A stretch of DNA of 64,000 nucleotides from an uncultured Gammaproteobacteria bacterium. Its GTDB lineage: Bacteria; Patescibacteriota; Microgenomatia; Levybacterales; GWA1-39-11. The notes under the pieces are model-generated. The model was given only the letters and a program-made list of their open reading frames with translations. It was not told the origin of the DNA and did no database searches. Both the position numbers and the translations under genes were made by a program. This document shows, one piece after another, positions 5,623 through 58,118 of the stretch. The stretch is from NCBI GenBank assembly GCA_964531275.1, contig CAZHDZ010000006.1:14963-78962 (forward strand). The letters are read 5' to 3'. Every line of letters starts with the position of its first letter. Position 1 is the first letter of the stretch.

Positions 5623-7995
5623 CTAATTTGCCTGAGGCTTTATTGTTAGATTGTCGTTTTCTATTGTAATATGTCCTTTTTCACCAGAAATTAGATCGTG
5701 CGACAAAATCAATTTTGAGAGCTGATTTTCAACTGACTGTTCTATAAAACGACTTATGTTACGGGCTCCAAATTCTACGCTGTATGCATTTTTTGCAATA
5801 TAATCACACACTGCTGAATCAAAAGTTAGCAGTATTTGTTTTTCCTTCGTTTTTTCTACAATTTCTTCAAGGAATATCTTTGCAACTTGAGAAGCCTCCT
5901 CTTGGGTTAATGGATGAAAGACTATTACATCGTCAAAGCGATTTAAAAGCTCCGGCTTAAAAGTTCCACTTTGTAGAAGTTTTTCTAATAATTTGTCTTT
6001 CATATTTTCGAGTGCACCACTCTTAAACATTTCCCTAATGAATTCGCTTCCAGCATTTGATGTCGCGATAATAATAGTGTTATTGAAAGATACTGTCCTT
6101 CCAAGATTGTCTGTCAAACGCCCTTCATCTAGAATTTGAAGAAATAGATTAAGAATTGATGGATCTGCTTTTTCAAATTCATCGAGAAGTATTTCACTGA
6201 ATGGATTTGCTACTACTTTATCGGCAAGAGTATCCTGATTTCCGGAAGAACCCAAAAATCTTTCAACAGAATTTGAATTCTGGTACTCACTCATGTCTAA
6301 CCTGATCATATTGTTCTCTTCTCCAAAATAGGATGTCGCAAGAGCTTTTGCTGCCTCAGTCTTTCCAACACCTGTTGGTCCCAAGAATAAAAATGAAGCA
6401 ATCGGCTTATTCTCATCTTTAATTCCGGACCTAACTCTTCTCATAGCATCAGCTATCGCCTGTACTGCTTCATTTTGAGCAATAACTCTTTTGTGAATTG
6501 TTTGTTCTAGATTAAGAAGCTCTTTTGCTTCTGCATCAGTAGGCTCTGACAGAACAATTTGAGTTTTTGTCTGAATAAAGTCTCTCACGCTTTGGCTGTC
6601 TATGTGCTTAATGCCATGCGTTAGGCAATATGAAACAGTATCCTCAATAAGTCTTACTGCACGTCCGGGAAGACCAGTGCCATCATTTACATAAGAGTTT
6701 GATAATTTGCGTGCCTCTGAGATAGCAGAGTACATAATAGTAACGTTGTTAACGCTTTCAATTTCTTTGGATTTCTCAAGCAGCATGAAAAGCACTGTCT
6801 CCTCATCTGGCTCATCAATTTCTATCTCATCAAAAAGCTCCTTTATTTCGGTTTTTGGATAAATGAATGTTTTGTATGCCTCCTTGGTAGTACTTCCTAT
6901 AATTTTTATTTTGTTGCTCTTCAGATATTCTACTAACGATCCCGAAAAATCGATATTGAGCCCTCCGCCCCCAAACATATTCTCGATATTTGGAATATAG
7001 ACAATGATATTGCCGGCATGAAAAAGCTCTGAGAAAAGATTCACTATTCTCGCTTCTAAATCTCCTTGATTGTCTATCCCAGCAAGTAGCCTTTCAGGAT
7101 ACAACTTAAAAACCAGCTTATTTGAGACACTTTTTGGCAAGCTACCACTATTAGAATCCACAACCAACTCCTTAACCAAAGCAGTCTTTCCAACACCAGC
7201 ATCCCCAACAAGCATTGCGTTGCTTGATGAACTTTTTGAGAGTGCAGTCACTAGTAGATCGTATTCCCGGGATCTTCCAATTGTTAGAGTTTGGGTTGAG
7301 GACAGAACTTCTCTAGTAAAATCTTGTGCATATTGTGCAAGTTCCGCACTCCAACCATAGACGAAAAAATCAAAGACGCCTGCTCCGGTAAAATGGAGCC
7401 CATGGTGCTTAGGCATGTCGATCGAATATTGTCTCCTAACCCACGATAGGACAATAACGATATCTTTTTCGAATATTTCACTTTGAAATAGCGATTTATC
7501 TATCTCATCTTCCAATAAAAGATATGCAGCATATATATCAATTCCATGTATATTATTTCCTCCAACTGATTTGACGAGTTGGCCTGCCTTAAGAAGGACC
7601 TGCTCTTCATCAATGGTCATTTCGTTTCTTTTGTATGAATGTCCCAAAAGCCTATTAAAATATTTAATCTCGCTCGTATGTAAAAGGTTTCCCATAACAT
7701 CCTCAACTTTTGCAAAACGTTCTAGATGCGCCCTTGTTTTATAGTCAACAGCTTCAATGATATGTTTTACAGCATCATGAATTGTCCTTTGAGGGGGAGA
7801 ATTTTCCAGCTTAAAATGAATAAAAAATTCTTGAAGTATGAGGAAAAAATAGATAGGTAGTAATCGCATTATAAAAGCGACATCTGAAAGGTTGAAATAT
7901 ACAAGAATACCAATCCCGAAGAAAATCAGAACCCTCAACCAACGAATAATTGGGTTGTCAAAAAAATAATACAAATAATAATAGTTATTGTGCAT
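5623..7995 (-). CDS. Hsp100/Clp-family double-AAA+ ATPase with N-terminal transmembrane helices; D1 has Walker A (GDAGVGKTA) but lacks the Walker-B DE; D2 is intact (GPTGVGKTE, ILLDEFEKA, ATSNAG, GARN); no ClpP-binding IGF loop
   Basis: ORF track translation. Two hydrophobic helices in the first 60 aa. A ClpB/ClpC-like D2 with a C-terminal small domain. In D1 the sequence IVYIPNIENMF replaces the expected hhhhDE box. Confidence 0.75.
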   Translation of the reverse strand: MHNNYYYLYYFFDNPIIRWLRVLIFFGIGILVYFNLSDVAFIMRLLPIYFFLILQEFFIHFKLENSPPQRTIHDAVKHIIEAVDYKTRAHLERFAKVEDVMGNLLHTSEIKYFNRLLGHSYKRNEMTIDEEQVLLKAGQLVKSVGGNNIHGIDIYAAYLLLEDEIDKSLFQSEIFEKDIVIVLSWVRRQYSIDMPKHHGLHFTGAGVFDFFVYGWSAELAQYAQDFTREVLSSTQTLTIGRSREYDLLVTALSKSSSSNAMLVGDAGVGKTALVKELVVDSNSGSLPKSVSNKLVFKLYPERLLAGIDNQGDLEARIVNLFSELFHAGNIIVYIPNIENMFGGGGLNIDFSGSLVEYLKSNKIKIIGSTTKEAYKTFIYPKTEIKELFDEIEIDEPDEETVLFMLLEKSKEIESVNNVTIMYSAISEARKLSNSYVNDGTGLPGRAVRLIEDTVSYCLTHGIKHIDSQSVRDFIQTKTQIVLSEPTDAEAKELLNLEQTIHKRVIAQNEAVQAIADAMRRVRSGIKDENKPIASFLFLGPTGVGKTEAAKALATSYFGEENNMIRLDMSEYQNSNSVERFLGSSGNQDTLADKVVANPFSEILLDEFEKADPSILNLFLQILDEGRLTDNLGRTVSFNNTIIIATSNAGSEFIREMFKSGALENMKDKLLEKLLQSGTFKPELLNRFDDVIVFHPLTQEEASQVAKIFLEEIVEKTKEKQILLTFDSAVCDYIAKNAYSVEFGARNISRFIEQSVENQLSKLILSHDLISGEKGHITIENDNLTIKPQAN

Positions 7996-8341
7996 ACCAT
8001 TGGGGAGATGCTGCTCCCAAAAGAATGAAAATTAAAGCAATTGGTATTGATGCAATAAGAAATCCTATGAGACATTCTGCGCAAAGGATAATAAGAACAA
8101 TGCATGATGTAACAGCAATCAAAATAGATTTTATTACCATTCCAAATAGTATTGAGAAAAGGACAAGCCCATCCCTATACTCATTCTTCATAGGTTTGAA
8201 AAAAGTTCTTATCAGTAAGGGGAGAGAGAGAAGGGATACTACATACCTGTTAAATAGCACGAAGAAATTTATCAACCCACCAAGAACGTCTTTGTACCAG
8301 AAGATAATGAGATACAGTGGGTAGTATAAAAATGCAACCAT
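7985..8341 (-). CDS. Small 4-TM membrane protein, overlapping (11 nt) and co-directional with the Clp-like ATPase
   Basis: ORF track. Four hydrophobic segments. Stop overlaps the start of the downstream Clp-like gene. Confidence 0.45.
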   Translation of the reverse strand: MVAFLYYPLYLIIFWYKDVLGGLINFFVLFNRYVVSLLSLPLLIRTFFKPMKNEYRDGLVLFSILFGMVIKSILIAVTSCIVLIILCAECLIGFLIASIPIALIFILLGAASPQWYAQ

Positions 8342-8414: not shown

Positions 8415-8741
8415 TTGTATGATAACCTCATGACGGATACTGATCTTTTGTCTTATCGTGATCTTTTTATTGAGTCTGCAGAGGAGCATGTACAAAAAAT
8501 TAATTCTGAGCTTACGAACAGCTCTGCACGCAAAGAAGTTATTGATGAAATATATAGGAGGATTCATTCATTGAAAGGCTCCTCAAGCATAATGGGCTTT
8601 TCCGAAATCTCCCAACTATGCACTAAAGCAGGAGACCTACTACAAGATCGCGAGAAAGAAAGTACTAGAGATGATAACCTTAAAATAGTTCAAGAAATTG
8701 TTAATAACATCCAACAAAAAATAGAAGAAATTAAAAAATAA
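8415..8741 (+). CDS. Standalone histidine phosphotransfer (HPt) domain protein
   Basis: The sequence RIHSLKGSSSIMGF fits the HPt signature HxxKGxxxxxG, in a ~100-aa all-helical context. Confidence 0.65.
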   Translation: MYDNLMTDTDLLSYRDLFIESAEEHVQKINSELTNSSARKEVIDEIYRRIHSLKGSSSIMGFSEISQLCTKAGDLLQDREKESTRDDNLKIVQEIVNNIQQKIEEIKK

Positions 8742-8746
8742 GAACT

Positions 8747-9112
8747 ATGAAAATACTGCTCGCGGAGGATGATCCATTCTTTCAAAATTTTTATTCCCGA
8801 AAATTATTAGAACATGGCTTTGAGGTAGATGTGGCGCATGATGGAAATGAAGCAATTGACAAGATATTCAAGCATACACCTGATGTTGTTCTACTTGACC
8901 TTATTATGCCGGGAAGAAATGGCTTTGAAGTACTCTCTGAAGTTTCAAAAAATAACACAATAAAAAAGCCTCCAATAATAGTATTTTCCACTCTAGGCCA
9001 AACTTCAGATATTGAAAAGGCAAAGCAATTAGGTGCAGTTACCTATATTAATAAAACCTTTTTCGATTTTGACAATTTATTATCTAAAGTAACAGCTGTT
9101 ATGAAAAACTAA
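8747..9112 (+). CDS. Single-domain CheY-like response regulator receiver
   Basis: MKILLAEDD...DVVLLDLIMPGRNGFEVL...TYINKTF: conserved Asp pocket, phospho-acceptor Asp, and Thr/Lys positions. Confidence 0.85.
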   Translation: MKILLAEDDPFFQNFYSRKLLEHGFEVDVAHDGNEAIDKIFKHTPDVVLLDLIMPGRNGFEVLSEVSKNNTIKKPPIIVFSTLGQTSDIEKAKQLGAVTYINKTFFDFDNLLSKVTAVMKN

Positions 9113-9119
9113 ATAGAAT

Positions 9120-10808
9120 ATGATCCTGTCCGACGATCAAATCAAAGCATTAGTTCTAAAAACTGGTCTTGCTAATGACCAGACTCTTCAGGAGCTCGTT
9201 GAATTCGCGAAAAATTCAAATGTTACACTTGCCGATGCCTTAATAGAAAAAGATGTAATCTCTGATGAAAATCTTGGAATACTCATCGCTGACTTCCTCC
9301 ATATCCCATTTATAGTTCTTTCAAAACTCTCGATACCAGAAGATGTATTTAGAATTGTTCCTGAAAAAATTGCAAGAAAACATAAAGTTATTCCATTTGA
9401 AAAAACACAAGAAGGGTTAAAAGTAGCAATAGTTGACCCTAAAAAAGTTGAGGTTCTTCAGGCGATCAGCAAAAAAGCTGGAGTCAAAGTCATACCTTAT
9501 CTCACAACGGAGCGTGATGTTGAAAATATTCTCCGCATATACAAAAGAGATCTTCAAAAATCATTCGAGCAACTCCTACAAAAGGAGCTTGGTATAACTG
9601 ATATTTCAAAAGTTACTGATGCTGCTCCAATTGAAAAAATTGTTAACCTACTTGTTGAATTCGGATATCAAGATAAAGTATCCGATATTCATATAGAACC
9701 TGAAGAAAAGGATTCACTTGTACGTTTTAGAATCGATGGAATACTCCATGACGTACTTTACTTCCCTAAGAACTTTCATGAAAGAATTATCTCAAGAATA
9801 AAAATCTTGTCGAAATTAAGAACCGACGAGCATTTAAGTCCTCAGGATGGAAAAATGAGAATAAAACTTGATGAAGAAAATCTCGACATCAGAGTCTCAA
9901 TACTACCAATTGCAGACGGCGAAAAAGCAGTGCTTCGTTTGCTTGCTTCACATTTCAGACAGTTTTCCCTCATTGACCTTGGAATGAGTGAATCCGATCT
10001 GAAAAAAGTAACAGCAGCGTACAGCAAGTCGTATGGAATGGTCCTCTCAACTGGTCCGACAGGAAGCGGAAAGACAACCTCTATATACGCGATTCTAAAA
10101 ATTCTTAACACAAGAGAAAAAAATATTACAACGATTGAAGACCCTGTTGAATACAGAATAAAAGGAGTTAATCAAATCAATGTTAATGTCAAAACCGATC
10201 TTACCTTTGCAAATGGTCTTCGCTCTATTCTGCGTCAGGATCCAAATGTTGTTTTTGTTGGAGAAATCAGAGATGGTGAAACGGCTGGTATTGCTGTAAA
10301 TGCTGCTTTGACCGGACATTTAGTTCTGTCTACCCTCCACACGAATGATGCCGCAACCGCTCTTCCTCGTCTCATTGATATGAAAGTTGAGCCTTTTCTT
10401 GTTGCTTCCACAGTCAATGTCATTATCGCTCAAAGACTTATTAGAAAAATCTGCGATATGTGCAAAATGTCCTATACTATATTAAGAACGGACCTTGCTA
10501 AGAATCTCCCACCAAGCGTAATATCAAAGCATTTTGGTGAAAAAGAGAACATAAGCCTTTATCGTGGAAAGGGCTGCAAGATCTGTCATGCAACGGGATA
10601 TTCAGGAAGACTAGGACTTTTTGAAGTACTCGTGGTATCGAAAGAAGTTAAAGCTCTTATTACGGCAAAGTCGGACTCTGACGTAATTGCAAAAAAAGCT
10701 ATCGAAGAAGGAATGACTACTATGTTAAATGACGGAATAAATAAAGTTGCAAAAGGAACAACAACATTGGAAGAAGTGTTGAGAGTTACAAGGGTCGAAT
10801 CCGATTAA
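9120..10808 (+). CDS. pilB: Type IV pilus assembly ATPase PilB (GspE family) with N-terminal T2SSE_N domain
   Basis: Walker A GPTGSGKTTS, Asp box, His box, and tetracysteine-like motif CDMC...CKIC. N-terminal domain LADALIEKDVISDENL. Confidence 0.92.
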   Translation: MILSDDQIKALVLKTGLANDQTLQELVEFAKNSNVTLADALIEKDVISDENLGILIADFLHIPFIVLSKLSIPEDVFRIVPEKIARKHKVIPFEKTQEGLKVAIVDPKKVEVLQAISKKAGVKVIPYLTTERDVENILRIYKRDLQKSFEQLLQKELGITDISKVTDAAPIEKIVNLLVEFGYQDKVSDIHIEPEEKDSLVRFRIDGILHDVLYFPKNFHERIISRIKILSKLRTDEHLSPQDGKMRIKLDEENLDIRVSILPIADGEKAVLRLLASHFRQFSLIDLGMSESDLKKVTAAYSKSYGMVLSTGPTGSGKTTSIYAILKILNTREKNITTIEDPVEYRIKGVNQINVNVKTDLTFANGLRSILRQDPNVVFVGEIRDGETAGIAVNAALTGHLVLSTLHTNDAATALPRLIDMKVEPFLVASTVNVIIAQRLIRKICDMCKMSYTILRTDLAKNLPPSVISKHFGEKENISLYRGKGCKICHATGYSGRLGLFEVLVVSKEVKALITAKSDSDVIAKKAIEEGMTTMLNDGINKVAKGTTTLEEVLRVTRVESD

Positions 10809-10809
10809 T

Positions 10810-11880
10810 ATGCAATTATTTAATAACTCCAACCCTAAATCGTTACGTATTAGCAGTACTGAAAAATTAGCATTGATCAGCAATCTTGCAACAATGCTAA
10901 CTGCAGGAATTCCTATTCTTGAAGTTGTGGATTCTCTTTTAGAGGATGCGAAAGGCAATCAAAGAAAACTTCTTGAATCACTGAAATTAGATCTTACCCA
11001 AGGAAATCATGTAGCAGATGCATTCGCAAAATTTCCTCGGGTTTTTGACAAGATTACCGTAAATCTCCTTAAGGCATCTGAAGAAGCAGGAACCCTAGAC
11101 GTAACGCTTATCGACTTGAAAGCTTCAATAAGAAAAGATTCTGAATTTTCAGACAAAATCAAAGGAGCACTTACGTATCCCGTACTTATTATGTTTGTTT
11201 TTATTGGAGTGCTACTTATGATCCTGGTTGTTGTTGTTCCAAAAATCTCAACGGTGTTTATGAGACTTAATGTAGAGCTACCACTACCTACCCAGATTCT
11301 TATCGCAATGTCTCAAGCGCTTACTCAATATACAATATTTGTAATTTTAGGAGCTGTAATATTTGTTGCTGGAATTTTTCTTCTATACAGAGAAAAGAAA
11401 AGAGAATTTCTTCACATACTCTTTATGCTACCCATCATATCCACCCTCGCAAAACAAATTGATCTGACTCGCTTTTCAAGAAGTCTTTACTTATTACTTA
11501 ATGCGGGTATTCCAATTGCAGCCGCATTAGAATTAACACAAGACGTTGTACTAAAACGTGAAGTTGCAGAATCAATTACGCATTGTAAAGAGGTTGTTCT
11601 TGCTGGTAGCCAGCTTTCGGAGGGACTTAAAAAAGCAAAGGGGATATTTCCAAGCATTATGATAAGAATTACTGAAGCAGGAGAGAAAAGCGGATCCCTA
11701 GATAAATCGATGCAAGATGTCTCTGAATATTTGGACTACCAAGTAGAAAAAACTCTCAAAACTCTTACAACTGTTCTAGAACCTATTATGCTTATTTTTG
11801 TTGGAATTGCGGTCGGAGGAATGATGCTTGCTATTATTGCTCCTATATATGGGCTTATTGGGCAAGTCACTACACGGTAA
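10810..11880 (+). CDS. pilC: Type IV pilus platform protein PilC (GspF family, two T2SSF repeats)
   Basis: Three TM segments with duplicated cytoplasmic domains. Position directly after pilB. Confidence 0.85.
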   Translation: MQLFNNSNPKSLRISSTEKLALISNLATMLTAGIPILEVVDSLLEDAKGNQRKLLESLKLDLTQGNHVADAFAKFPRVFDKITVNLLKASEEAGTLDVTLIDLKASIRKDSEFSDKIKGALTYPVLIMFVFIGVLLMILVVVVPKISTVFMRLNVELPLPTQILIAMSQALTQYTIFVILGAVIFVAGIFLLYREKKREFLHILFMLPIISTLAKQIDLTRFSRSLYLLLNAGIPIAAALELTQDVVLKREVAESITHCKEVVLAGSQLSEGLKKAKGIFPSIMIRITEAGEKSGSLDKSMQDVSEYLDYQVEKTLKTLTTVLEPIMLIFVGIAVGGMMLAIIAPIYGLIGQVTTR

Positions 11881-12365
11881 TGAAACTACAACGACAAGCT
11901 GGATTCACCTTAATTGAAATTTTATTAGTAGTTGGGATTCTGGGACTACTTTTCGGAATCGGGCTTTTAAGCATTGGCAACATCCAAGTAATCACTCAAA
12001 ATAATGCCTCTTCAACCCTGATAGTCTCAGATCTTAAGACACAGCAGATAAAGGCGATGGTTGGTGACACAGAGGGAAGAGGAATTCCGGATAACTATGG
12101 CATTAAAATTTTGACAGACAGATATATTTTATTCCACGGCATAAATTACAACGCAGCTGATACTGCTAACTTTTCAATTCCACTCGCATCCGGATATACA
12201 CTGAGCTCTACATTTCCCAATACAACAATTCTCTTTGCATCAAATAGTGGAGAGCTAGTAAACTTTGCTCAGGGCAGTGACACAATTACGGTAACCCATA
12301 CGTCATCAAGCAAGCAACAGGTTATTAGACTTAATAAATATGGAACTATTACAAATCTTCAATAA
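11880..12365 (+). CDS. Prepilin-type (pseudopilin/minor pilin) protein with class III signal peptide
   Basis: N-terminus MKLQRQAGFTLIEILLVVGILG: G-F-T-L-I-E with Glu at position +5 after the Gly cleavage site. Confidence 0.8.
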   Translation: MKLQRQAGFTLIEILLVVGILGLLFGIGLLSIGNIQVITQNNASSTLIVSDLKTQQIKAMVGDTEGRGIPDNYGIKILTDRYILFHGINYNAADTANFSIPLASGYTLSSTFPNTTILFASNSGELVNFAQGSDTITVTHTSSSKQQVIRLNKYGTITNLQ

Positions 12366-15276
12366 AAACCAAAAAGGCCAGATGCTCATAGAAATTCTTA
12401 TTGTCATTGCAATAAGTGCGATTATGCTCCCAGCACTACTCACTGGCCTTTTCTCATCAACTCAAGGAAAAGCACAACAGGGACAACGAGTACAAGCAAT
12501 CGCTCTTATGAAAGAGGCTGAAGAAGTAGTCAGAAACGTTAGAAACCAGAGCTGGCAAGCCTTTGCCACCAATGGCATTTATCATCCATTGATATCGGGC
12601 ACTACGTGGAATTTTGCATCAGGGAGTGAGACGGTAAATGGCTTGACTAGAACAATTACTGTTAGTGACGTTAGGAGAGATGCGAATGGAGCAGTTGTTA
12701 CTTCAGGCGGCAGCCTTGATCCTTCTACTAAGCGTGTCTATATTCAAGTGACCTGGGGTGAACCCTACGCTTCTTCTGTAGATTCTACTATTTACGTTAC
12801 AAGATTCCTACAAAATGCAGCCTCAACCCAAACAAGCATTAGTGACTTTAGCACCGGCACTTTTGCAACAACCGAATCATCGAATGTGTTGGGTGGAGAA
12901 ATTACGCTTTCAACCAATACGAAGGGTAAATGGTGCTCTCCCGCTTTTGCTGCAGCTACCATTACGCTCCCTGATGGTCCACCAGTTGCCGTTGCCGCGA
13001 CCTCAAGCGCAACCAGCATAACAATACCAAATCAAGCATTTGTAGCAACAGCCCCAACCCTTGCAACTTCAATTAAATTGGCGCATGTTACGGTGTCTGC
13101 TGATACCGATACTCAGACGACTTCTCTTCGAGGGAAATTCACTCTTGACCCAACCAAATACAGCAATGCCGGACTGGTGCCCTCAGGCATTGGACTAGAC
13201 AATAGTTTTAAAACAAATGCCATAAAATATTACAAATCGTCTTCGGGAAAAATGTATGCCCTTATAGCAACTACAAAACCTGACAGGGAGGTTATAGCAA
13301 TTTTAGTTGATGACAACAATAGCTCGAATGATAATACAAATACCGGCGAGTACCAAGATTATGTAAATGGAATTTATAAATATTGGACGTACTTTAATAC
13401 CAATACATACAACACTGCAGGAAATTTTGATACAGGATTTCAAAGTCCATCAGCAAATTCCGCAGACAGTGGAGGGGATGGGGATGGATTTACCAATGGT
13501 AGCAGGGCTTACTCAAATAATACCCAACAAGCAACAGATAGTAATAGCGGATCGGGGACAGGAACAAGCTGCACTGGGAGCGACAAGGACAAGCATCGAT
13601 TCTACAACTATGATTTTACTCTCCCAACAGGTGCTGCTATTTCCGGGATCGAAGTAAGACTTGATGCATGGGTTGAAAGCACATCCAATTCACCCACTAT
13701 GTGTGTTCAACTTTCCTGGGATGGGGGTACAACATGGACAACAGCAAAATCAACAACAACATTAACAACATCTCAATCAACATATCTGCTTGGAGGCTCG
13801 TCCGACACTTGGGGTCGGTCATGGGGAAGCACTGAGTTGAGCAATTCAAATTTTAGAGTTAGAGTGATTAATGTATCAAGCAGCACCTCAAGGGATTTTT
13901 CCCTTGATTGGGTGGCTGTAAAAGTTAATTATTCAGGTGGAACCCTAAATGACCAAGCCCCATTCGATTATGGAGCTACCTCTATTGCAGTTCTTGGAAA
14001 TCAAGGCTATGCAAGCTCTGGTGGATACCTTTACACCTTTGATTTATCAAACATCGACTCAAAATCCACCTCAGATGGTCTAGATATGGTAGGCTGCAGA
14101 ATACAGCTTGATGGGTACGACTGTAATCCCGGCTCCGGCACAGATAGAAAGTACGACCCTGGTGAATATGGGGCAAGCTGGTCTGATACAACTTCACCTG
14201 CCCACAATGACTGCTCTGATGGAGGAAATATAGAGCTGTATGGAACAAATGATATTTACCCAGTCCAGGTAGGCAGCAATACATATATTTATGCAGCGGT
14301 TGGTGCTGGTACAAATCCTGAGCTTAATATTGTAAATGCTACAAGCATACCAACCACAAGCACTACTCCCACAATTTCAGATAGTACGTGTGGGAGAGCC
14401 TCCGGAGGCAATACCGGATGGAAATTGGTCGGAAGCTATGACTTTAATACAGCCAATGGCACAGAAGAAGCTGCAAATTCTGTATATGCCAGCGCTGATG
14501 GAACGAGGGCTTATATATCATCCAATGGTGGCTCGGCCAGCAAGCAGCTTTATGTAATAAATACCTCCAGCAAAACCGCTCCCGCCTTCCTTTCAGGCAG
14601 TCCTTCAACTGGACCTCTAAGCGGATTCTACAGTGGAACTGGAGCAGATGCCGAACTGTATCCAAGACGTTCACTAACTGTTTTTAACGGTCAGAGAGCT
14701 GTGTTGGTTGGAAAAGATGGAACGGTAAATGGAAATAATGGGAAAGAATACCAAGTACTTAACATGAGCAATGAAGCCAACCCTACATACTGTGGGGGTT
14801 TGCAGTTCGATTCAGGATTTAATGACCTTACTGCTGTTTCGGAGTTAGACGGAGACAACTTTGTATACATGGTCGGAAATACAGTAGGAAATGAGTTGAA
14901 AATAATTCAAGGAGGTCCTGATGGCACCTACCTAAGCTCCGGAACGTATGAATCCTCTCCAAAGGATCTAGGTGCAAATGTAGCACTTAATAGATTTTCT
15001 GTAACTGCTACTGTCTCTGCTTCAACCATTCTTCAATTTCAAGTTGCTGCCACTCAACAAGTAAGTGGTTCTTGTGTTGGCGCAACATATACGTACGTTG
15101 GGCCAGATGGCACTTCAAGCACCTACTTCCCTTCAAGCGGAGGACCAATACCTTTGAGTGGAGTTGTTGGATTTGAAAATCCTGCACAATGCGTAAAGTA
15201 TAAAGCTTTTCTTTCAACAACAGACAACAATGTAACCCCTTCAATTCTTGACGCATCTTTTAATTTCTCACCGTAA
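12340..15276 (+). CDS. Giant prepilin-type protein (978 aa): class III signal peptide (KGQMLIEILIVIAISA) fused to a large Ser/Thr/Gly/Asn-rich extracellular region; candidate pilus tip adhesin
   Basis: ORF track. N-terminal prepilin motif with E at +5. Remainder is beta-rich with low-complexity ST-rich stretches and no further TM segment. Confidence 0.7.
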   Translation: MELLQIFNKNQKGQMLIEILIVIAISAIMLPALLTGLFSSTQGKAQQGQRVQAIALMKEAEEVVRNVRNQSWQAFATNGIYHPLISGTTWNFASGSETVNGLTRTITVSDVRRDANGAVVTSGGSLDPSTKRVYIQVTWGEPYASSVDSTIYVTRFLQNAASTQTSISDFSTGTFATTESSNVLGGEITLSTNTKGKWCSPAFAAATITLPDGPPVAVAATSSATSITIPNQAFVATAPTLATSIKLAHVTVSADTDTQTTSLRGKFTLDPTKYSNAGLVPSGIGLDNSFKTNAIKYYKSSSGKMYALIATTKPDREVIAILVDDNNSSNDNTNTGEYQDYVNGIYKYWTYFNTNTYNTAGNFDTGFQSPSANSADSGGDGDGFTNGSRAYSNNTQQATDSNSGSGTGTSCTGSDKDKHRFYNYDFTLPTGAAISGIEVRLDAWVESTSNSPTMCVQLSWDGGTTWTTAKSTTTLTTSQSTYLLGGSSDTWGRSWGSTELSNSNFRVRVINVSSSTSRDFSLDWVAVKVNYSGGTLNDQAPFDYGATSIAVLGNQGYASSGGYLYTFDLSNIDSKSTSDGLDMVGCRIQLDGYDCNPGSGTDRKYDPGEYGASWSDTTSPAHNDCSDGGNIELYGTNDIYPVQVGSNTYIYAAVGAGTNPELNIVNATSIPTTSTTPTISDSTCGRASGGNTGWKLVGSYDFNTANGTEEAANSVYASADGTRAYISSNGGSASKQLYVINTSSKTAPAFLSGSPSTGPLSGFYSGTGADAELYPRRSLTVFNGQRAVLVGKDGTVNGNNGKEYQVLNMSNEANPTYCGGLQFDSGFNDLTAVSELDGDNFVYMVGNTVGNELKIIQGGPDGTYLSSGTYESSPKDLGANVALNRFSVTATVSASTILQFQVAATQQVSGSCVGATYTYVGPDGTSSTYFPSSGGPIPLSGVVGFENPAQCVKYKAFLSTTDNNVTPSILDASFNFSP

Positions 15277-15279
15277 AAT

Positions 15280-15786
15280 ATGAACCATAAATCAATAAAG
15301 ATGCACAAACAAAGAGGATTCACATTGGTTGAGCTACTTATCTACATGGGGCTACTAGTAATTATGATTGTTGTCTTCACGCAAATTTTTGTTTCGATTT
15401 TGGACAATCAGTTGAGATCTACTAATACTTCGAATGTTGCTGATGATGGAAGATATATTTATTCTAGATTCATTTATGATGTTAATAGGGCTGACTCAAT
15501 TGCTTCACCCTCAGCATATGGCAGCAGTTCTGCAAGCATGACTTTGGTAATTGACGGGATAGACAATACTTATTCTGCAACAAATGGAAGCCTCCTAGTA
15601 ACAACCCCGACAAATACTTTTATATTGAATGGATATGGATCAACAGTTACAGATCTAATATTCACTAAGGTCGGTTCCCCAAGCGCAAAAAGTACAGTAC
15701 GCATGAACTTTACAATCAGTGGAACAATTAATTCGCGTGGCTTAATAGATAGACAAGATTTTCAAACAACTGCCGGACTGAGATGA
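15280..15786 (+). CDS. Prepilin-type minor pilin/pseudopilin
   Basis: Near the N-terminus: KQRGFTLVELLIYMGLLVIMIVVF, a prepilin cleavage/methylation motif. Confidence 0.8.
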   Translation: MNHKSIKMHKQRGFTLVELLIYMGLLVIMIVVFTQIFVSILDNQLRSTNTSNVADDGRYIYSRFIYDVNRADSIASPSAYGSSSASMTLVIDGIDNTYSATNGSLLVTTPTNTFILNGYGSTVTDLIFTKVGSPSAKSTVRMNFTISGTINSRGLIDRQDFQTTAGLR

Positions 15787-16166
15787 TACATAACTTTCGC
15801 AATCAAAAAGGGCAAACGCTCGTTATTATGCTTACCTACATGGTAATAGCTGTTGTTGTTACAACTGCATCAATTGCTTTGGTTTTAAATAGCGCGAGCG
15901 GTACAGATAAAGTCTATCAGGGAACCAACTCCCTTGATATTGCAGAAAGTGGAGCAGAAACTGCTATGATAAAGTTACTAAGAAATCCGAATTATACGGG
16001 CGAGACATTGACAGTTGGAGGAGGCCAAGCAGTAATAACCATAACGGGCACCAATCCAAAAAAAGTTATTTCGAAAGGGACTCTCAACCATTTTACTCGT
16101 ACAATACAGGTGCTAGTAGATACAAGTAACAATACTCTCACTGCTATATCCTGGAAGGAAATCTAG
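15783..16166 (+). CDS. PilX-like minor pilin (hydrophobic N-terminus without Glu5, AESGAETAMIKLL motif)
   Basis: QKGQTLVIMLTYMVIAVVV followed by IAESGAETA, which resembles the PilX N-terminal region. Confidence 0.55.
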   Translation: MIHNFRNQKGQTLVIMLTYMVIAVVVTTASIALVLNSASGTDKVYQGTNSLDIAESGAETAMIKLLRNPNYTGETLTVGGGQAVITITGTNPKKVISKGTLNHFTRTIQVLVDTSNNTLTAISWKEI

Positions 16167-16175
16167 ACTGCTCAT

Positions 16176-16874
16176 ATGGAATTTACAAAAAAACAACCTG
16201 CTTTTATTTATCTTGATAAAAATGGCTTCTACTTTTTTGAGAATGGCATGACCCAAGTAATAAGTCTCGCTTTCCTTGCAACTTCTGTAAAAGATATGGA
16301 CGTTATCAATGGTGGCTCGCTTATGACCCAGGTAAAAGGTTTTATAGATCAATATAAACTGTCCCCTGCGGCAGCCACCATAATCTTCTCTCCAAATATT
16401 ACCTTTGAAAAAGATATCGTTGATCTTGCCCATGATCAGCAGGAAGAAGAGATTAAAAAATTCTTAGAGACAGTTCCTTTCGACAGCGTGCTTTCAAAAG
16501 AGTATCCGATTAATAAAGGGGTTAAGATAATCGCGGTCAATGAGGATATATACATGGAACTTAAAATGGCATTTGAGAAAAACGCATGGAGCGTTGATAA
16601 CGCTGTAGCTTATCAAATGATGGGTCAAGATCAGACATTTATTCGCAATCTAACTCCAGACAACGCAGCACAACTCGTAAAGCGTCTTTATCACCTAAAA
16701 CAAGCAACACTTCTAACTGTTGAGAAAGAAAAATTCCAACCAATTGAAATGTCTTCTGACAATAAAAAGGAAATGACAAAAACAAAAAAAGTAAATGTTC
16801 GTCTCTTTGCCATGATTGGAATTTTCGGAATTCTTTTCGTTGTTCTGGGTTTTATGATAATTAACATGAAATGA
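16176..16874 (+). CDS. Hypothetical pilus-locus protein, ~205-aa cytoplasmic domain with a C-terminal TM anchor; possibly a reduced PilM-like component
   Basis: ORF track. C-terminal helix LFAMIGIFGILFVVLGFMIINMK. Sits between the minor pilins and the major pilin. Confidence 0.4.
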   Translation: MEFTKKQPAFIYLDKNGFYFFENGMTQVISLAFLATSVKDMDVINGGSLMTQVKGFIDQYKLSPAAATIIFSPNITFEKDIVDLAHDQQEEEIKKFLETVPFDSVLSKEYPINKGVKIIAVNEDIYMELKMAFEKNAWSVDNAVAYQMMGQDQTFIRNLTPDNAAQLVKRLYHLKQATLLTVEKEKFQPIEMSSDNKKEMTKTKKVNVRLFAMIGIFGILFVVLGFMIINMK

Positions 16875-17058
16875 GATTCTTAAATCTTTTTCTGATTTAT
16901 ATTTTTTTCTACAATCAGAAATAAAATCCTCACAAATTGCTATTGAAATCATGAAAAGAAAAATTAATATGAGATATTTTTTGGTTAATTTGAAGCAAAA
17001 GTTGCTCTTAAATTACCTATTGACAAGGTTTTTCAAATATGATTATCTTAATACAGAT

Positions 17059-17532
17059 ATGACAACTGCCCAGTTTAAAAATCAAAAAGGTTTCACACTC
17101 ATCGAGTTACTCGTAGTGATCGGAATCCTAGCCGTTCTTCTTGCTATCACTCTTATTGCTATCAATCCAGCGAGACAATTCCAACAGGCAAATGACACAA
17201 AAAGATCTTCTGACGTAAATGCTATTCTTAGTGCAGTCGGACAATATTCAGCAGACAACAAGGGAAATCTAACAGCTCTTGGAATCCCAACAGGAACAGC
17301 AGCGATTATCGGAGATGGAGTTGGACAAGTTGATCTTTGCGATGACATAGTCACACAATACATGGCTGCCCTACCTGTAGATCCATTAACGAATAACGGA
17401 GCCCCAGTAACTGATTGTACAGCTGCATACGATACGAATTACACAATTGTTCAAAGCGCTGCAAACAGCAGAATAACTGTAAGTGCTCCAGCAACTGAAA
17501 TCGGAGCTGTAGACATCTCAGTAACTCGATAG
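17059..17532 (+). CDS. pilA: Type IV major pilin (PilA-like) prepilin; start ambiguous (17059 gives leader MTTAQFKNQKG; in-frame ATGs at 16951 and 16969)
   Basis: KGFTLIELLVVIGILAVLLAITLIAINPARQFQQAND is a canonical type IVa pilin N-terminus. Mature length is about 145 aa. Confidence 0.8.
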   Translation: MTTAQFKNQKGFTLIELLVVIGILAVLLAITLIAINPARQFQQANDTKRSSDVNAILSAVGQYSADNKGNLTALGIPTGTAAIIGDGVGQVDLCDDIVTQYMAALPVDPLTNNGAPVTDCTAAYDTNYTIVQSAANSRITVSAPATEIGAVDISVTR

Positions 17533-17619
17533 TTCTTCACTCATTGACTTCCCTATAAATTAAGTGTTAGCATTTTATTAGTAGTTTAATTCGCTTAGCT
17601 AAGAATCTTACAATTCTAT

Positions 17620-18012
17620 ATGGATAAGAAGATACTCATTGCGGAAGATGATGAATTCCTAAGACAACTATATTCTGATGTCTTAAAAGGCGAAGGCTAT
17701 ACTGTCGATGTTGCCATAGATGGAGACGATGCCCTTCGCAAAATACAGGCAGGTGGATGGGATCTAGTGCTACTTGATATCATAATGCCCAAGCTCAGTG
17801 GTCTTGATGTTATGAGGAAGGCAAAGGAATCTCCTCAACCTTTAAATCAAAATAAATGCATAGTATTTCTCACCAACTTAGATAAGGGGGAAGAGATTAA
17901 GGAAGCATTAATTTTGGGAAATGGTTATCTCATAAAAAGTCAGATTACTCCAGGTGATTTGGTTAAAGAAGTTCAATTATATCTTACGCCTCAAGGACAA
18001 ACCGTTAATTAA
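17620..18012 (+). CDS. Single-domain CheY-like response regulator receiver
   Basis: MDKKILIAEDDEFLRQLY...DLVLLDIIMPKLSGLDVM... Confidence 0.85.
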   Translation: MDKKILIAEDDEFLRQLYSDVLKGEGYTVDVAIDGDDALRKIQAGGWDLVLLDIIMPKLSGLDVMRKAKESPQPLNQNKCIVFLTNLDKGEEIKEALILGNGYLIKSQITPGDLVKEVQLYLTPQGQTVN

Positions 18013-19418
18013 ATAGGAAGCGTAAATGAAAATGTCGCACCTTTTCCTTCCCCTTCTGATTCTACCCAGATGCGCCCATGATGTAATTCAATAAGATTTT
18101 TCGAAAGGTATAATCCTAGCCCTGATCCTTGGCCTGCTTGCTTCGTCAAATAACTACCACCTAGCATATTAAATTTCTTAAATAGCTTTTCCATATCCTC
18201 TGGTTTTATACCCATACCGGTATCGCGGACTTTAATAAGAACGCTTCCATCTTTTTCTTCACAGGTTACTGAAATACTGCCGTCTTTTACGGTAAATTTA
18301 AGAGCATTCCCTATTAGATTAATAAGAACTTGCTTAATTCTATCTGCATCAGCTGATATCACCGGCAAAGGCTCTGCCGGAACTGTTACAAATAATTTAA
18401 TGCCAAGTTCTGTTGATTTTGCTTGCATCTCCGCTATAACTTCCTGAACAAGAGTTACGATATTCATTGGCTTAGGATCAATTGTAAATCTTCCAGACTC
18501 AATACGAGAAATATTCAACATGTCATTTACCATATCAATAAGTCTATTTGTAGAATCGTATGATCTTTTAAGATATTCCATCTGCTGAGGGGTAAGCTCT
18601 CCGGTTTTTCCCTCTAAAAGAAGCCATACATATGACTTAATAACGGTCATTGGAGTTCTTAACTCATGTGATGCAAGAGAGACGAATTCATCCTTCAATT
18701 TATCTACTTGTTTTAATTTCTCGTTGGCATTTTGGATTGCTCGATACAAAAGGGCATTATCAACAGCAATACCAATAACACCAGTCAAGCGATCTATTAT
18801 GTCTTTCTCTGCTGGTGTCGCCTCTTCAAGCTTCTTCTCAAGCATCACAATCAAAGTTCCAATTACGTTATTACGGATTATAAGCGGCACTGCAAGTATT
18901 GACTGCACCCCGACCGAGCTTTGCAGCCGTACAAGCTCCTCTTTTGACTGACTACTTATGCCAAGGTCTTCTATGTTTGTAACAACCTGCATCTTTCTGT
19001 CAATTACTGTCTTAACAACGGGATTGATGCTTAAAGAAAGGGGTATTTCCTCAACGTAAAGCTTCCCTGTTTCACCTATTCCTGTGTATGCATCAGCTAG
19101 CGGCCTCAAGCTATTTTGGGTGGATAATTCATACACAGCAAGACCTCTAAATTCTGATTCGGCGACGATTAAATCGGCAACCTGTTGCGCAACTAAGTTT
19201 GGGTCAGTCACTGAAGAAAGAACAATAACGTCTATTTTTCGAAGCAGTGATAATGTCTTATTGCGTTCATTAAGCTCTACGTTCTTCTTATACATTTCCT
19301 CAGTTGCATGAGTAAGCTCACCCTGCAAACTTGATGTATCTTGAGTGGGCGTAAGCTCACCCTGAAGAGATGATGTATCCTGAGCTGGAGTAGGTGAATT
19401 AGGATTTTGCGGATCCAT
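18009..19418 (-). CDS. Cytoplasmic sensor histidine kinase: N-terminal 13-aa tandem repeat, GAF-like domain, HisKA (HELRTPMTVIKSY), HATPase_c
   Basis: H-box, N/G1/G2 boxes (LIGNALKFT, DTGMGI, GSGLGL). No TM segments. Confidence 0.85.
   Translation of the reverse strand: MDPQNPNSPTPAQDTSSLQGELTPTQDTSSLQGELTHATEEMYKKNVELNERNKTLSLLRKIDVIVLSSVTDPNLVAQQVADLIVAESEFRGLAVYELSTQNSLRPLADAYTGIGETGKLYVEEIPLSLSINPVVKTVIDRKMQVVTNIEDLGISSQSKEELVRLQSSVGVQSILAVPLIIRNNVIGTLIVMLEKKLEEATPAEKDIIDRLTGVIGIAVDNALLYRAIQNANEKLKQVDKLKDEFVSLASHELRTPMTVIKSYVWLLLEGKTGELTPQQMEYLKRSYDSTNRLIDMVNDMLNISRIESGRFTIDPKPMNIVTLVQEVIAEMQAKSTELGIKLFVTVPAEPLPVISADADRIKQVLINLIGNALKFTVKDGSISVTCEEKDGSVLIKVRDTGMGIKPEDMEKLFKKFNMLGGSYLTKQAGQGSGLGLYLSKNLIELHHGRIWVESEGEGKGATFSFTLPI
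19312..19389 (-). repeat. 2 x 39-nt tandem direct repeat encoding TPTQDTSSLQGEL twice at the kinase N-terminus
   Basis: Two near-identical 39-nt units (first 19312-19350) read directly in the sequence; the second unit is my own extension of the count and the least certain. Confidence 0.7.
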
Positions 19419-19484
19419 ATGTTACTAATTAGTATACTGCAAGAATTATTTTTTTACTGTATCACAGAAAGAATCTTTGATTCT

Positions 19485-19763
19485 TTACTGAAGCTGTGAT
19501 GGGATTTTATCTACAGGAATACTCTTAAGTAATCCCTTAATCGCATCGCGACAAACTTCTACTGAGGCTTGACCAAAAAGATGCTTGTAGCTGTTCACCA
19601 GCTGGTCCAAAATGTCTTTTTCGTTACCAGATAAAGATACCTCGTGCTTATCCCAATTGATAGTAAGCCCTGGTACTTTCTTTGCCTGCTCCAAAGCAAT
19701 AGGACCAATAACATTTTCTTGTTCTTTGATTATTTTTTGCGCAAGCTGTGCCATTGCATCCAT
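19485..19763 (-). CDS. Small hypothetical protein (92 aa) immediately upstream of and co-directional with the histidine kinase
   Basis: ORF track only. Confidence 0.4.
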   Translation of the reverse strand: MDAMAQLAQKIIKEQENVIGPIALEQAKKVPGLTINWDKHEVSLSGNEKDILDQLVNSYKHLFGQASVEVCRDAIKGLLKSIPVDKIPSQLQ

Positions 19764-19768
19764 ATATA

Positions 19769-20566
19769 TTATTCGTAATTCTTAAATAACATTAAGCCGA
19801 CAGCCATGAGAGTAAAAGAGGTTGTAAACATCAGGTCATTAATCCCAGCATTATAGTATGAACCAGTTGCTGCCTGATAAAAGAATGTAAATTCAGTGAT
19901 GTATTCCATGACCAAAGCAACAACTATAAACAAGATCTTTGGCCTCATTATTCCACCAAGCATCTTGCGTGACAGACTATAAGTAGCAATTGCTATAGAT
20001 ATTGGAATGGCCAGTCCGAGTGGCGTTCCATAGTCTAAAAATGTTTTTACGGGATTTGAAAAATCATGAGGAGCATCTTTTACAAAAAAGAAGTACGAAA
20101 CACTTAACATTATTGCGGGAATCATTATTGCTACAAAACGGGCATTATTCTTTTTAAGGAAATATTTTGATCCCGCTGCTCTTGCAAAATGGTACATTCC
20201 AAGAGAGTACGTGATAATTGCTGAAAAATATCCAAAATCAGCTACGGAAGGGTAAGGAATCTCTACTTTTGCAACTAAATTATAATACGACCAAATTGTC
20301 TGTCCAAGCCAATAACCAAAAAGTCCGAGAGACAAGTAGATTATTCCCTTACCGATATGACTCTTAAAACCCCCCCACTTTTTAGCTATTATTATGCCAT
20401 AGATTCCTCCTAAAAGAGGAATAAGCGAATATGCAAAACCAAAAAGCATATTCTCATCACCCTCTTTAACGCCGGAAATAAAGATCTTAACCCACCACAA
20501 AACAAGGAGAATATAATAGGATATTAGAACTAAAAAAACTTTACTTTGAAAGATTTGTTTTATCAT
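19769..20566 (-). CDS. Polytopic membrane protein (about 7-8 TM), possible membrane sensor module for the downstream kinase
   Basis: Hydrophobicity pattern. Operon-like spacing with the 92-aa gene and the kinase. Confidence 0.5.
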   Translation of the reverse strand: MIKQIFQSKVFLVLISYYILLVLWWVKIFISGVKEGDENMLFGFAYSLIPLLGGIYGIIIAKKWGGFKSHIGKGIIYLSLGLFGYWLGQTIWSYYNLVAKVEIPYPSVADFGYFSAIITYSLGMYHFARAAGSKYFLKKNNARFVAIMIPAIMLSVSYFFFVKDAPHDFSNPVKTFLDYGTPLGLAIPISIAIATYSLSRKMLGGIMRPKILFIVVALVMEYITEFTFFYQAATGSYYNAGINDLMFTTSFTLMAVGLMLFKNYE

Positions 20567-20680
20567 CTATATTTTAACTGTATGACAATCGATAATTCTT
20601 GTCAATCAGCCTGATCGACCTAAGCATTGATTGATCAATTTACCTACTATATACTTGTATTTTGGTAGACATTTTCTCAA

Positions 20681-22399: not shown

Positions 22400-22404
22400 T
22401 CATT

Positions 22405-23313
22405 TTACGGTAAGAAAATGAAGTAGAGTCCAATAAACATAACGACAATACATGAAGCCTTCCATATTAAATTAGTCCCACCAATATCTTCTTTTATTAA
22501 TCTTGGCAATAGAACGGTAAGAACTATTCCAAAAAACAAAGTTATTAAAGGCTGTATCCCTTGCATGATAGTACTGGCAAGTCCAGCACTTATGGTAGTT
22601 AAAGAGAACCAATAGAAATATACTGCTACAAGATTTATAGACTCATTAATAAAGATGAATCCGTAGACTTTTTTCTTTATTCGCTTTGAATTTTTAACAA
22701 ACATTCTTCTAATACTCTTGTTGAGAAGCAGTACTACCGAGCATAGTAAAACCCCAACACCTTCATAAGTAAGAGCTTGAAAAAAAGGAATATCATTTGC
22801 TACAAATTTATATAAAATAAGAGATAGCGAATAGAGAAAACAGGAAAGCATCAGATACCAAAATGACTTCCTTAACTTGAATATATTAAGGCTAGGTTTT
22901 TCCATCGATATTACAAGAGAGGCTACAATAATAAAAAATGAACCAATATATTGATTACCTGATAATAGCTCACCAAGCAAAAGATATCCCATGATTATGG
23001 TAAAAACCGGAATTACCGAGAATAGTGGTATTATTCTTGAGGTTTCATCCATCGACAAAGTTTTGTAATAAGGCAAGAGGGAAATGTTAATAAGAAAGCC
23101 TGACCCGACCACCAAGAGAATTGTTAGAATATCACCCGTATATATTCCAACTACAAGAGCTACGCCTAAGCCAACAATAAATCCAAATATTCCGCTGTAA
23201 ATCGTTATGAGGTAGTAATTTAGCCGCTGCTTCTCAAGCAAGAACTTGTCAATGTAATTACTGCAGGAATAAAAAAATGCAGCAGCAATTGCTGAAAATA
23301 TACCGCTATTCAT
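22405..23313 (-). CDS. EamA/DMT-superfamily transporter (10 TM)
   Basis: Two EamA-like 5-TM repeats; about 300 aa. Confidence 0.7.
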   Translation of the reverse strand: MNSGIFSAIAAAFFYSCSNYIDKFLLEKQRLNYYLITIYSGIFGFIVGLGVALVVGIYTGDILTILLVVGSGFLINISLLPYYKTLSMDETSRIIPLFSVIPVFTIIMGYLLLGELLSGNQYIGSFFIIVASLVISMEKPSLNIFKLRKSFWYLMLSCFLYSLSLILYKFVANDIPFFQALTYEGVGVLLCSVVLLLNKSIRRMFVKNSKRIKKKVYGFIFINESINLVAVYFYWFSLTTISAGLASTIMQGIQPLITLFFGIVLTVLLPRLIKEDIGGTNLIWKASCIVVMFIGLYFIFLP

Positions 23314-32756: not shown

Positions 32757-32759
32757 AGG

Positions 32760-33074: not shown

Positions 33075-33142
33075 ACAACATTAATAGTAGCATCAATCGG
33101 ACAGATAAAACAACACGTTTTGCAAAATTTACTCTGTAGAAT

Positions 33143-56816: not shown

Positions 56817-56921
56817 TTCTTTTCCAGCCTCATTTATTTTCTTTTTTCTTTGACATACGTCCTAAAAAACCCTACACTAAATTAAGTACCCAGCATGGGC
56901 TATTTTGCTGTGGTGATTTGT

Positions 56922-57491: not shown

Positions 57492-57492
57492 T

Positions 57493-58116: not shown

Positions 58117-58118
58117 CT

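Follow-up and report, generated by a model that had tools for sequence, protein, structure and literature searches.

We describe a type IV pilus locus in a 64-kb stretch of contig CAZHDZ010000006.1 (the window) that encodes, alongside the pilus machinery, a histidine kinase, a candidate intermediate receiver, a histidine phosphotransferase and a candidate terminal receiver. The phosphotransferase is a standalone histidine phosphotransfer (HPt) protein whose gene, together with that of a CheY-like single-domain receiver (RR1), lies immediately upstream of pilB-pilC and the pilin genes, and a second lone receiver (RR2) and a soluble GAF-HisKA-HATPase kinase are encoded beyond the major pilin gene. 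Pfam searches confirmed the domains and places of both pairs as an initial annotation, made from the sequence alone, had given them; the GAF domain is marginal and the kinase has no predicted transmembrane segment. Our preferred reading, which we consider probable, if only modestly so, is that these proteins would form a relay from the kinase histidine through the RR2 aspartate, HPt His46 and the RR1 aspartate to the pilus extension ATPase PilB, switching pilus assembly. Domains, intact catalytic residues, a fold modelled with AlphaFold2, conserved gene order, a gene fusion and joint gene loss are observed; what we infer is the sequence in which phosphate moves, the action on PilB and the nature of the signal. 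The closest named relatives of the PilB protein belong to Candidatus Levybacteria, Gottesmanbacteria and the 'Patescibacteria group', best matches that suggest a type IV pilus operon of a Levybacteria-like (Microgenomates-type) bacterium of the candidate phyla radiation (CPR).

By sequence and modelled fold, the phosphotransferase is a true HPt protein of CheA-P1 ancestry and not a CheA. It passes the Pfam profile PF01627 with 55.8 bits against a gathering cut-off of 24.6 (other members of its family score 37-56 bits), and the HPt assignment, first made from the sequence, stands up to both profile and fold. Among PDB sequences, a profile built from its orthologues matched 1TQG best, the P1 domain of CheA from Thermotoga, aligned over almost the full length (E 1.4e-12); E-values for the Ypd1-type proteins of fungi and for plant AHPs exceeded 0.1. 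NCBIfam likewise places the CheA N-terminus first (49.9 bits), with the HPt domains of TorS and BarA at about 20 bits. The early analogy to Ypd1 or Spo0B thus gives way to a CheA-P1-like identity. An AlphaFold2 model built from a 41-sequence family alignment (predicted local distance difference test score, pLDDT, 90.6) is a four-helix bundle with helices at 3-30, 35-55, 58-72 and 77-102 and His46 on helix 2. Foldseek matched this model almost exclusively to HPt proteins and CheA P1 domains (Salmonella P1, TM-score 0.79, root-mean-square deviation 2.5 Å), with E-values that are weak, as is usual for helical bundles. The phosphorylatable histidine is invariant in 41 of 41 family members and in the window forms part of the motif H46-S-L-K-G, with lysine at H+3 and glycine at H+4. 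Domains for CheA dimerisation (H-kinase_dim), HATPase and CheW-like domains are absent from the protein, whose 103 residues hold the HPt only.

This protein also belongs, as judged from database searches, to a distinct and well-separated family of standalone proteins of 100-160 residues whose nearest relatives are CheA P1 domains. A word-indexed search returned 43 family clusters, every one of them standalone (102-149 aa). An exhaustive search of 1.84 billion representatives was re-scored per domain, because summed domain scores put multi-HPt CheA and ChpA proteins on top; it then yielded 33 standalone proteins (125-159 aa) at 120-173 bits per domain, followed by the P1/HPt domains of CheA and of multi-HPt ChpA-like kinases at no more than 71 bits. 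A profile search of genome contigs with the HPt alignment found a single locus, identical to L002. The open reading frame (ORF) of the window's HPt opens at a TTG at 8415 (8415-8741), and its likely start is the ATG at 8430, the start used in the database copy P0001 and in all relatives.

The unit conserved around this HPt is smaller than the four-part set first proposed: all four genes are indeed present in the window, but what is kept among relatives is the two-part HPt-RR1 unit. Seven lineages retain the order HPt-RR1-PilB-PilC, even where identity has fallen to 65% for PilB and to about 25% for the HPt. Synteny in relatives bears out the upstream pair; RR2 and the kinase are restricted to the window's sub-clade. 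Complete four-part sets occur in L001-L007 (PilB 96% identical to that of the window), in L093 (90-91%) and in L095 (75%), where the HPt is fused to RR1 and the kinase has a 7TM sensor. HPt-RR1 alone is found in L011 (PilB 70%) and in L096 and L097, which were reached via distant HPt members, and in none of these three does a kinase or second receiver lie within 10 kb; L013 (65%) likewise has HPt-RR1 only, with no kinase or second receiver in the sequence available. The conserved core is HPt-RR1-PilB-PilC, and RR2 and the kinase are an addition specific to the window's sub-clade. Orthologues of RR1 stand directly upstream of pilB in L001-L007, L011, L013, L093 and L095-L097; in the window the RR1 gene begins 5 nt downstream of the HPt gene and ends 7 nt upstream of pilB. 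Between the window and L011, the HPt is 40% identical over its N-terminal half and RR1 is 51% identical. In L095 (9143-9892, plus strand), HPt and RR1 are joined in one ORF of 249 aa that retains the histidine, and this fusion, together with the invariant adjacency, is the strongest computational evidence supporting phosphate exchange between HPt and RR1.

RR1 and RR2 both retain the acidic pair, the phospho-acceptor aspartate, the Ser/Thr and the lysine (D8, D9, D51, S/T81, K103; S81 in RR1). The receiver domain fills nearly the whole of each protein (121 aa in RR1, 130 aa in RR2), so the early description of receivers without output domains was right, and both are in addition catalytically intact. 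A metagenome scan seeded with orthologues of RR1 returned 80 loci, which were annotated with our own ORF calls and profile searches. Receivers scoring at least 80 bits to RR1 occurred in 13 of them and adjoined pilB in nine, one of the loci scored (L026) being too short to judge. With HK standing for histidine kinase and RR for receiver, the nine arrangements are HPt-RR-PilB (L013), HK-RR-PilB-PilC (L014, L015, L019), HK-RR-RR-PilB-PilC (L016, L017, L021), RR-PilB (L025) and PilB-RR-(PilT-like)-PilC (L020). Below about 70 bits, four loci had pilB in the same locus as the receiver (L043, L048, L053, L067), and only in L048 were the two adjacent. RR1 is a member of a receiver family that is almost always found beside pilB, across three signalling contexts, and for that reason a protein-level output on the pilus motor, as the initial annotation had suggested, appears the favoured one. 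Two further observations concern these receivers: in L018 (3256-5141), an RR1-like receiver (93 bits) and a convergent, overlapping kinase have the geometry of RR2 and the kinase in the window, but there the receiver lies away from pilB and the kinase includes a coiled region resembling the N-terminus of RNase Y; and L016, an HK-RR-RR-PilB locus, has a third lone receiver (7313-7696, plus strand) inside its minor pilin genes.

The kinases of the HK-RR-PilB-type loci are of the classical sensor type, with PAS, HAMP or Cache domains but neither a receiver nor an HPt domain, and the pilus genes that follow have the order seen in the window. All pilB-adjacent receivers have in common an alpha4 motif, S(T/N)LGQxxDIxKAxxLGA, that is absent from RR2, but the beta5-alpha5 loop after the conserved lysine reads K(T/S)FFDF in HPt-coupled receivers as against KS(D/N)xSxxE in kinase-coupled ones. 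This pattern suggests a common downstream surface at alpha4 and a donor-specific upstream surface at beta5-alpha5. On the PilB tree, kinase-coupled loci are basal and HPt-coupled loci form a derived clade; therefore, the HPt appears to have replaced a sensor kinase in front of RR1, the older CPR layout having been, it seems, sensor kinase-receiver-PilB.

In the relay that we propose, the GAF kinase would autophosphorylate on the histidine of its HisKA domain and would then phosphorylate RR2, as the conserved adjacency of their genes suggests. The phosphate would travel via RR2 because the kinase is not hybrid, having neither a receiver nor an HPt domain. RR2~P would next pass its phosphate to HPt His46, a transfer that we propose because no CheA kinase core is present; to our knowledge, HPt domains are charged by receivers unless such a core is there. 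HPt~P would in turn phosphorylate RR1, as the fusion and the invariant adjacency suggest, and RR1~P would bind PilB or the PilB/PilC interface, changing pilus extension activity. We propose that RR1 acts by binding PilB because it has no output domain, and this last step draws support from the linkage to pilB across the receiver family and from two precedents: EmvR, a single-domain receiver of Xanthomonas oryzae, binds PilB and represses its ATPase (PMC11973254), and phosphorylated PixG binds PilB1 (PMC11181946). The input might enter through the GAF domain, through the adjacent 265-aa membrane protein or, in the L095 orthologue, through the 7TM sensor.

The main argument for kinase and RR2 feeding HPt-RR1 comes from the joint inheritance of the two signalling blocks, which sit at separate sites. 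The backbone of the window runs from a 2-hydroxyacid dehydrogenase, a ClpB-like AAA+ protein and a 118-aa ORF through block 1 (HPt-RR1) to the pilus genes, and then through block 2 (RR2, kinase, 92-aa protein, 265-aa protein, carbamoyltransferase, EamA transporter and pyridoxal phosphate (PLP) decarboxylase) to DnaJ, an S8 peptidase and ClpB. L094 (PilB 83%) and L008/L009 (76%) share this backbone and the pilus genes and have neither block. In a bootstrapped neighbour-joining tree of PilB plus PilC (902 gap-free columns, 300 replicates), the clade comprising the window, L001, L093, L094, L008 and L095 has 100% support, as does the placement of L094 as sister to the window, L001 and L093; the four-part L095 either groups with L008 as its sister (66%) or branches at the base of the clade (28%). 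Because L094 and L008 nest inside a four-part clade at 100% support, the simplest history that this tree implies is a four-part ancestor followed by at least two independent losses, each of which would have cleared two separate sites. Within this clade, the four components are thus present together or lost together, which supports the link between the two ends of the locus that the initial annotation had drawn. L010 (labelled Gottesmanbacteria, PilB 72%) also lacks HPt-RR1. As a weak additional hint in the same direction, the NCBIfam matches of RR2 include receiver domains of hybrid kinases (PRK15347, 50 bits; ArcB, 42.6), which are not among the 25 best matches of RR1.

Several observations weigh against a single relay. 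The argument from joint inheritance is weakened because L011, L013, L096 and L097 have HPt-RR1 but neither RR2 nor the kinase nearby, so that the donor there must be encoded elsewhere, and the donor in the window's own genome could lie elsewhere too. Our view of that genome is limited to 64 kb, and a hybrid kinase may be encoded outside the window. RR2 and the kinase are convergent and lie in an indel block with an unrelated carbamoyltransferase, EamA transporter and PLP decarboxylase. The fusion in L095 is known from one lineage of metagenome-assembled genomes, and no column of the PilB alignment separates receiver-linked from receiver-less loci.

These four lineages and the convergent genes in their separate indel block would also be expected if there were two systems, HPt-RR1 being fed by a hybrid kinase or receiver elsewhere and the GAF kinase and RR2 forming an independent pair, with RR2 acting on pilin supply or on another protein or being merely a neighbour of the pilus operon. 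We consider such a division rather unlikely, given that both blocks are co-present or co-absent within a fully supported clade, through at least two joint losses at two sites, and that orthologues of RR2 (178-259 bits) were seen, in a small sample, nowhere but in loci that have the kinase and HPt-RR1 as well. A non-hybrid kinase with a lone receiver is, moreover, exactly the donor that an HPt requires.

It is improbable, in our assessment, that the pathway is instead branched, with the kinase phosphorylating RR1 and RR2 directly, the HPt serving as a reversible store or drain for phosphate and so determining how long RR1~P lasts, and RR2 acting as an antagonistic sink similar to PilH or PixH. 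The HPt occupies the slot held by the kinase before RR1, and the surface of RR1 after the conserved lysine shifts with it, which suggests a change of donor and not the addition of a sink; HPt-RR1 also persists in lineages without any local kinase. What recommends a branched scheme is that in deeper relatives (L014, L016, L017, L019, L021) a kinase immediately precedes one or two lone receivers and pilB, and that the HPt is P1-like, phosphate exchange between P1 domains and CheY being reversible. The Pil-Chp and Tax1 systems, furthermore, have a pair of antagonistic CheY-like receivers as a rule (PMC11181946). Very improbable, finally, is a target of RR1 other than PilB (PilC, the 232-aa protein or an unrelated process, with adjacency to pilB reflecting co-expression only): such a target would fit the absence of any PilB sequence signature of receiver coupling, and PatA-type regulators contact PilC as well in cyanobacteria (PMC11181946), but the adjacency of receiver and pilB outlasts rearrangements (HK-RR-PilB, HPt-RR-PilB, PilB-RR-PilC) and all of these arrangements have a conserved alpha4 face in common.

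CPR bacteria keep few conspicuous surface machines in their tiny genomes. Type IV pili, which are thought to serve host attachment and DNA uptake, are one of them, and the control of their activity is essentially undescribed in the literature. In this respect, the HPt-receiver-pilB cassette offers a concrete circuit that is small enough to test, made up of four soluble proteins and PilB. Taken as a natural series, kinase-receiver-PilB, HPt-receiver-PilB, a fused HPt-receiver and complete loss also illustrate the conversion of a two-component system into a relay. By eye, both N-terminal MshEN repeats of the window's PilB seem to be without the Arg, Gly and Gln of the cyclic di-GMP-binding motif of MshEN domains; if this is true, the receiver could stand in for cyclic di-GMP control of PilB. 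We put forward only tentatively, and with some doubt, the wider proposal that a receiver family of CPR bacteria (Microgenomates) gates PilB directly and that, in one large clade, a liberated CheA-P1-like HPt replaced the cognate kinase to become a relay hub for several kinase inputs. In these ultra-small, probably host-dependent cells, such a relay would be the switch that sets the time of pilus extension for attachment or DNA uptake, and a classical HisKA kinase would, with no CheA involved, charge a P1-type HPt by way of a lone receiver.

The pilus locus is a compact gene cluster at 8.4-20.6 kb of the window, and its plus-strand part, from the HPt gene to RR2, has intergenic gaps of -25 to +88 nt, the largest being that between the major pilin and RR2. 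The coordinates of its genes are collected in Table 1.

Table 1. Genes of the type IV pilus locus and its associated signalling proteins, in window coordinates.
Feature	Position	Strand	Size and evidence
HPt, standalone	8430..8741	+	103 aa; Pfam Hpt 55.8 bits; H46 in HSLKG
RR1, CheY-like single-domain receiver	8747..9112	+	121 aa; Response_reg 85.7 bits
PilB-type pilus extension ATPase	9120..10808	+	562 aa; T2SSE 424.5 bits, N-terminal MshEN 53.2 bits
PilC platform protein	10810..11880	+	T2SSF 156.5 bits, two repeats
Minor pilin-like protein	11880..12365	+	161 aa; N_methyl 25.3 bits
Large pilin-like protein, prepilin-type N-terminus	12340..15276	+	978 aa; N_methyl weak, 15.5 bits
Minor pilin	15280..15786	+	168 aa; N_methyl 30.4 bits
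Minor pilin-like protein	15783..16166	+	127 aa; hydrophobic prepilin-like N-terminus; without Pfam match; kept in all related loci
232-aa protein with C-terminal transmembrane segment (205-232)	16176..16874	+	Same position in every related locus
Major pilin	17059..17532 (ORF opens 16951)	+	N_methyl 38.6 bits, residues 43-67 of the long ORF; TIGR02532
RR2, second single-domain receiver	17620..18012	+	130 aa; Response_reg 67.2 bits
Cytoplasmic GAF-HisKA-HATPase histidine kinase	18009..19418	-	469 aa; HATPase_c 102 bits, HisKA 66.7 bits
92-aa protein, upstream of the kinase in its direction of transcription	19485..19763	-	Neighbour kept in L093 (94 aa)
265-aa membrane protein with multiple transmembrane segments, first gene of the kinase's unit	19769..20566	-	Several hydrophobic segments; kept in L093

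The window's PilB is a divergent member of the PilB family, because its TIGR02538 score of 525 bits falls under the equivalog cut-off of 675.65 (NCBIfam); it carries the T2SSE and MshEN domains and has PilC and pilins as neighbours. Five pilin-like genes follow PilB and PilC. The large pilin-like protein is a candidate tip or adhesin subunit; its counterparts range from 658 to 1162 aa in otherwise syntenic loci, where its position is kept, and it is absent from L011, a length variation and absence that suggest rapid evolution. The 232-aa protein, for which neither Pfam nor NCBIfam gave a match, is probably a pilus assembly component whose family is unassigned. The likely start of the major pilin is M37 of the long ORF, with the leader MTTAQFKNQKG|FTLIELL. 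Scans of the window for promoters and terminators found sites no more commonly than in shuffled sequence.

The kinase had at first been grouped with RR2, but it is not part of the RR2 operon: the two genes lie convergently on opposite strands with a 4-nt overlap and are not co-transcribed. It belongs instead to a minus-strand unit with the 92-aa protein, which has no family match in Pfam or NCBIfam, and the 265-aa membrane protein, which we would speculate to be a sensory partner of the kinase. That the 265-aa protein might be the split-off 7TM sensor domain of the L095 kinase was dismissed on finding no similarity by BLASTP (E 2.5). The GAF assignment is marginal in the window (GAF 22.5 bits against a cut-off of 22.4; GAF_2 26.1, under its cut-off of 28.6) and clear in the L093 orthologue, and the sole hydrophobic stretch of the protein falls inside this domain. 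The H-box reads SHELRTP. The L095 orthologue (719 aa) has a HisKA_7TM sensor domain in place of GAF and a core 59% identical to that of the window kinase. At the N-terminus of the kinase (19300-19400, minus strand), the sequence is of low complexity and includes a 13-aa tandem duplication, QDTSSLQGELT(P/H)(T/A), that Tandem Repeats Finder did not report on the DNA. Compared with L094 and L008, the window has an extra block of about 6.9 kb (17620-24421) between the major pilin and dnaJ; past the kinase unit, this block holds the carbamoyltransferase (20681-22399), the EamA transporter (22405-23313) and the PLP-dependent decarboxylase (23306-24421).

Single-sequence searches and broad profiles (122 receiver and 52 kinase domains, run on the six-frame translation) revealed no kinase, receiver or HPt in the window beyond the four genes of the locus. 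Directly upstream of the pilus genes, a ClpB-like AAA+ paralogue of 790 aa, hydrophobic in its N-terminal part, adjoins a 118-aa membrane ORF (5623-8341, minus strand), a pair found in the same place in L001, L093, L094 and L095; a canonical ClpB is encoded additionally at 27551-30436. A second pilus-assembly cluster lies far from the main locus (56895-58430, plus strand), where a 207-aa protein (57493-58116) matches PilO (PF04350, 26.9 bits) and the small membrane proteins on either side of it gave no family match. The region at 30456-35242 (minus strand) may be another surface or secretion apparatus: a 104-aa protein (32760-33074) at threshold for T4SS_pilin (PF18895, 26.5 bits) lies there between proteins of 766 and 699 aa without Pfam match. 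Near the start of the window (130-792, plus strand) is an orphan C-terminal fragment of an RHS/YD-repeat toxin (…YDPWGE…LYTGQEHDGETGLHYYNARYYNP…RYTDPSGHF) that runs into a short variable tail; in relatives (L001), an RHS protein of 1964 aa is encoded upstream of the same neighbourhood.

Among known systems, the proposed relay invites comparison with those built from separate proteins, namely KinA-Spo0F-Spo0B-Spo0A of Bacillus and the alphaproteobacterial kinase-SdrG/MrrA-PhyT/LovK-PhyR pathway (PMC5898713, PMC5964349). Like these, the window has a non-hybrid kinase, a lone receiver, a separate histidine phosphotransferase and a terminal receiver as individual genes. Unlike the dimeric, DHp/HisKA-like middle component of the Spo0 and stress relays, however, the phosphotransferase of the window is a monomeric four-helix bundle of the CheA-P1 HPt type, and a Spo0B-type identity was ruled out on domain grounds; the terminal receiver, moreover, has no output domain, and the relay is tied to a pilus motor gene. 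As a small standalone HPt with an exposed histidine on helix 2, the protein resembles Ypd1, the plant AHPs, Vibrio LuxU and Pseudomonas HptB (PDB 7C1I). Those proteins are fed by hybrid kinases, whereas neither the window nor any of the related loci that were examined contains a hybrid kinase, and in sequence the HPt lies much nearer to CheA P1 (E 1e-12) than to the AHP/Ypd1 types (E above 0.1).

P1-type HPts and two lone receivers are also features of the Pil-Chp system of Pseudomonas (ChpA, PilG, PilH) and of the Tax1 system of Synechocystis (PixL, PixG, PixH; PMC11181946). There, the receivers acting on PilB are CheY-like and obtain their phosphate from the P1-type HPt; we propose the counterpart in the window from its genes. 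Despite these parallels, the system of the window is not a member of the Pil-Chp/Tax family, because methyl-accepting chemotaxis proteins (MCPs), CheW and the CheA kinase core (P3-P5) are absent from the scanned ORFs of the window and from related loci. Instead, its HPt is free, the only nearby kinase is a classical HisKA kinase, and its receivers have no PATAN domains. RR1 further resembles EmvR in being a single-domain receiver linked to PilB, through gene context in the case of RR1 and, for EmvR, through binding to PilB that alters its ATPase activity. EmvR is phosphorylated by a classical kinase (PMC11973254); it is an orphan whose gene is not beside pilB and which involves no HPt, whereas RR1 is encoded next to pilB together with an HPt, and orthology is not implied. 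At the other end of the locus, kinase and receiver genes adjoin the major pilin gene as in PilS-PilR of Myxococcus, Geobacter and Pseudomonas, a likeness extended by the 7TM sensor domain of the orthologous kinase of L095. RR2, unlike PilR, has no sigma-54 AAA+ or DNA-binding output, and an identity of the PilS-PilR kind was ruled out, RR2 consisting of a 130-aa receiver only.

A full-text literature search on HPt, receiver and pilB in CPR, Patescibacteria and Saccharibacteria found no description of an HPt-receiver-pilB cassette, and a review of PilB cofactors mentions neither an HPt protein nor CPR bacteria (PMC11656802). While the parts themselves are standard, the novelty of this locus lies in their arrangement, which would bring a multistep phosphorelay together with CheY-like control of PilB in CPR bacteria.

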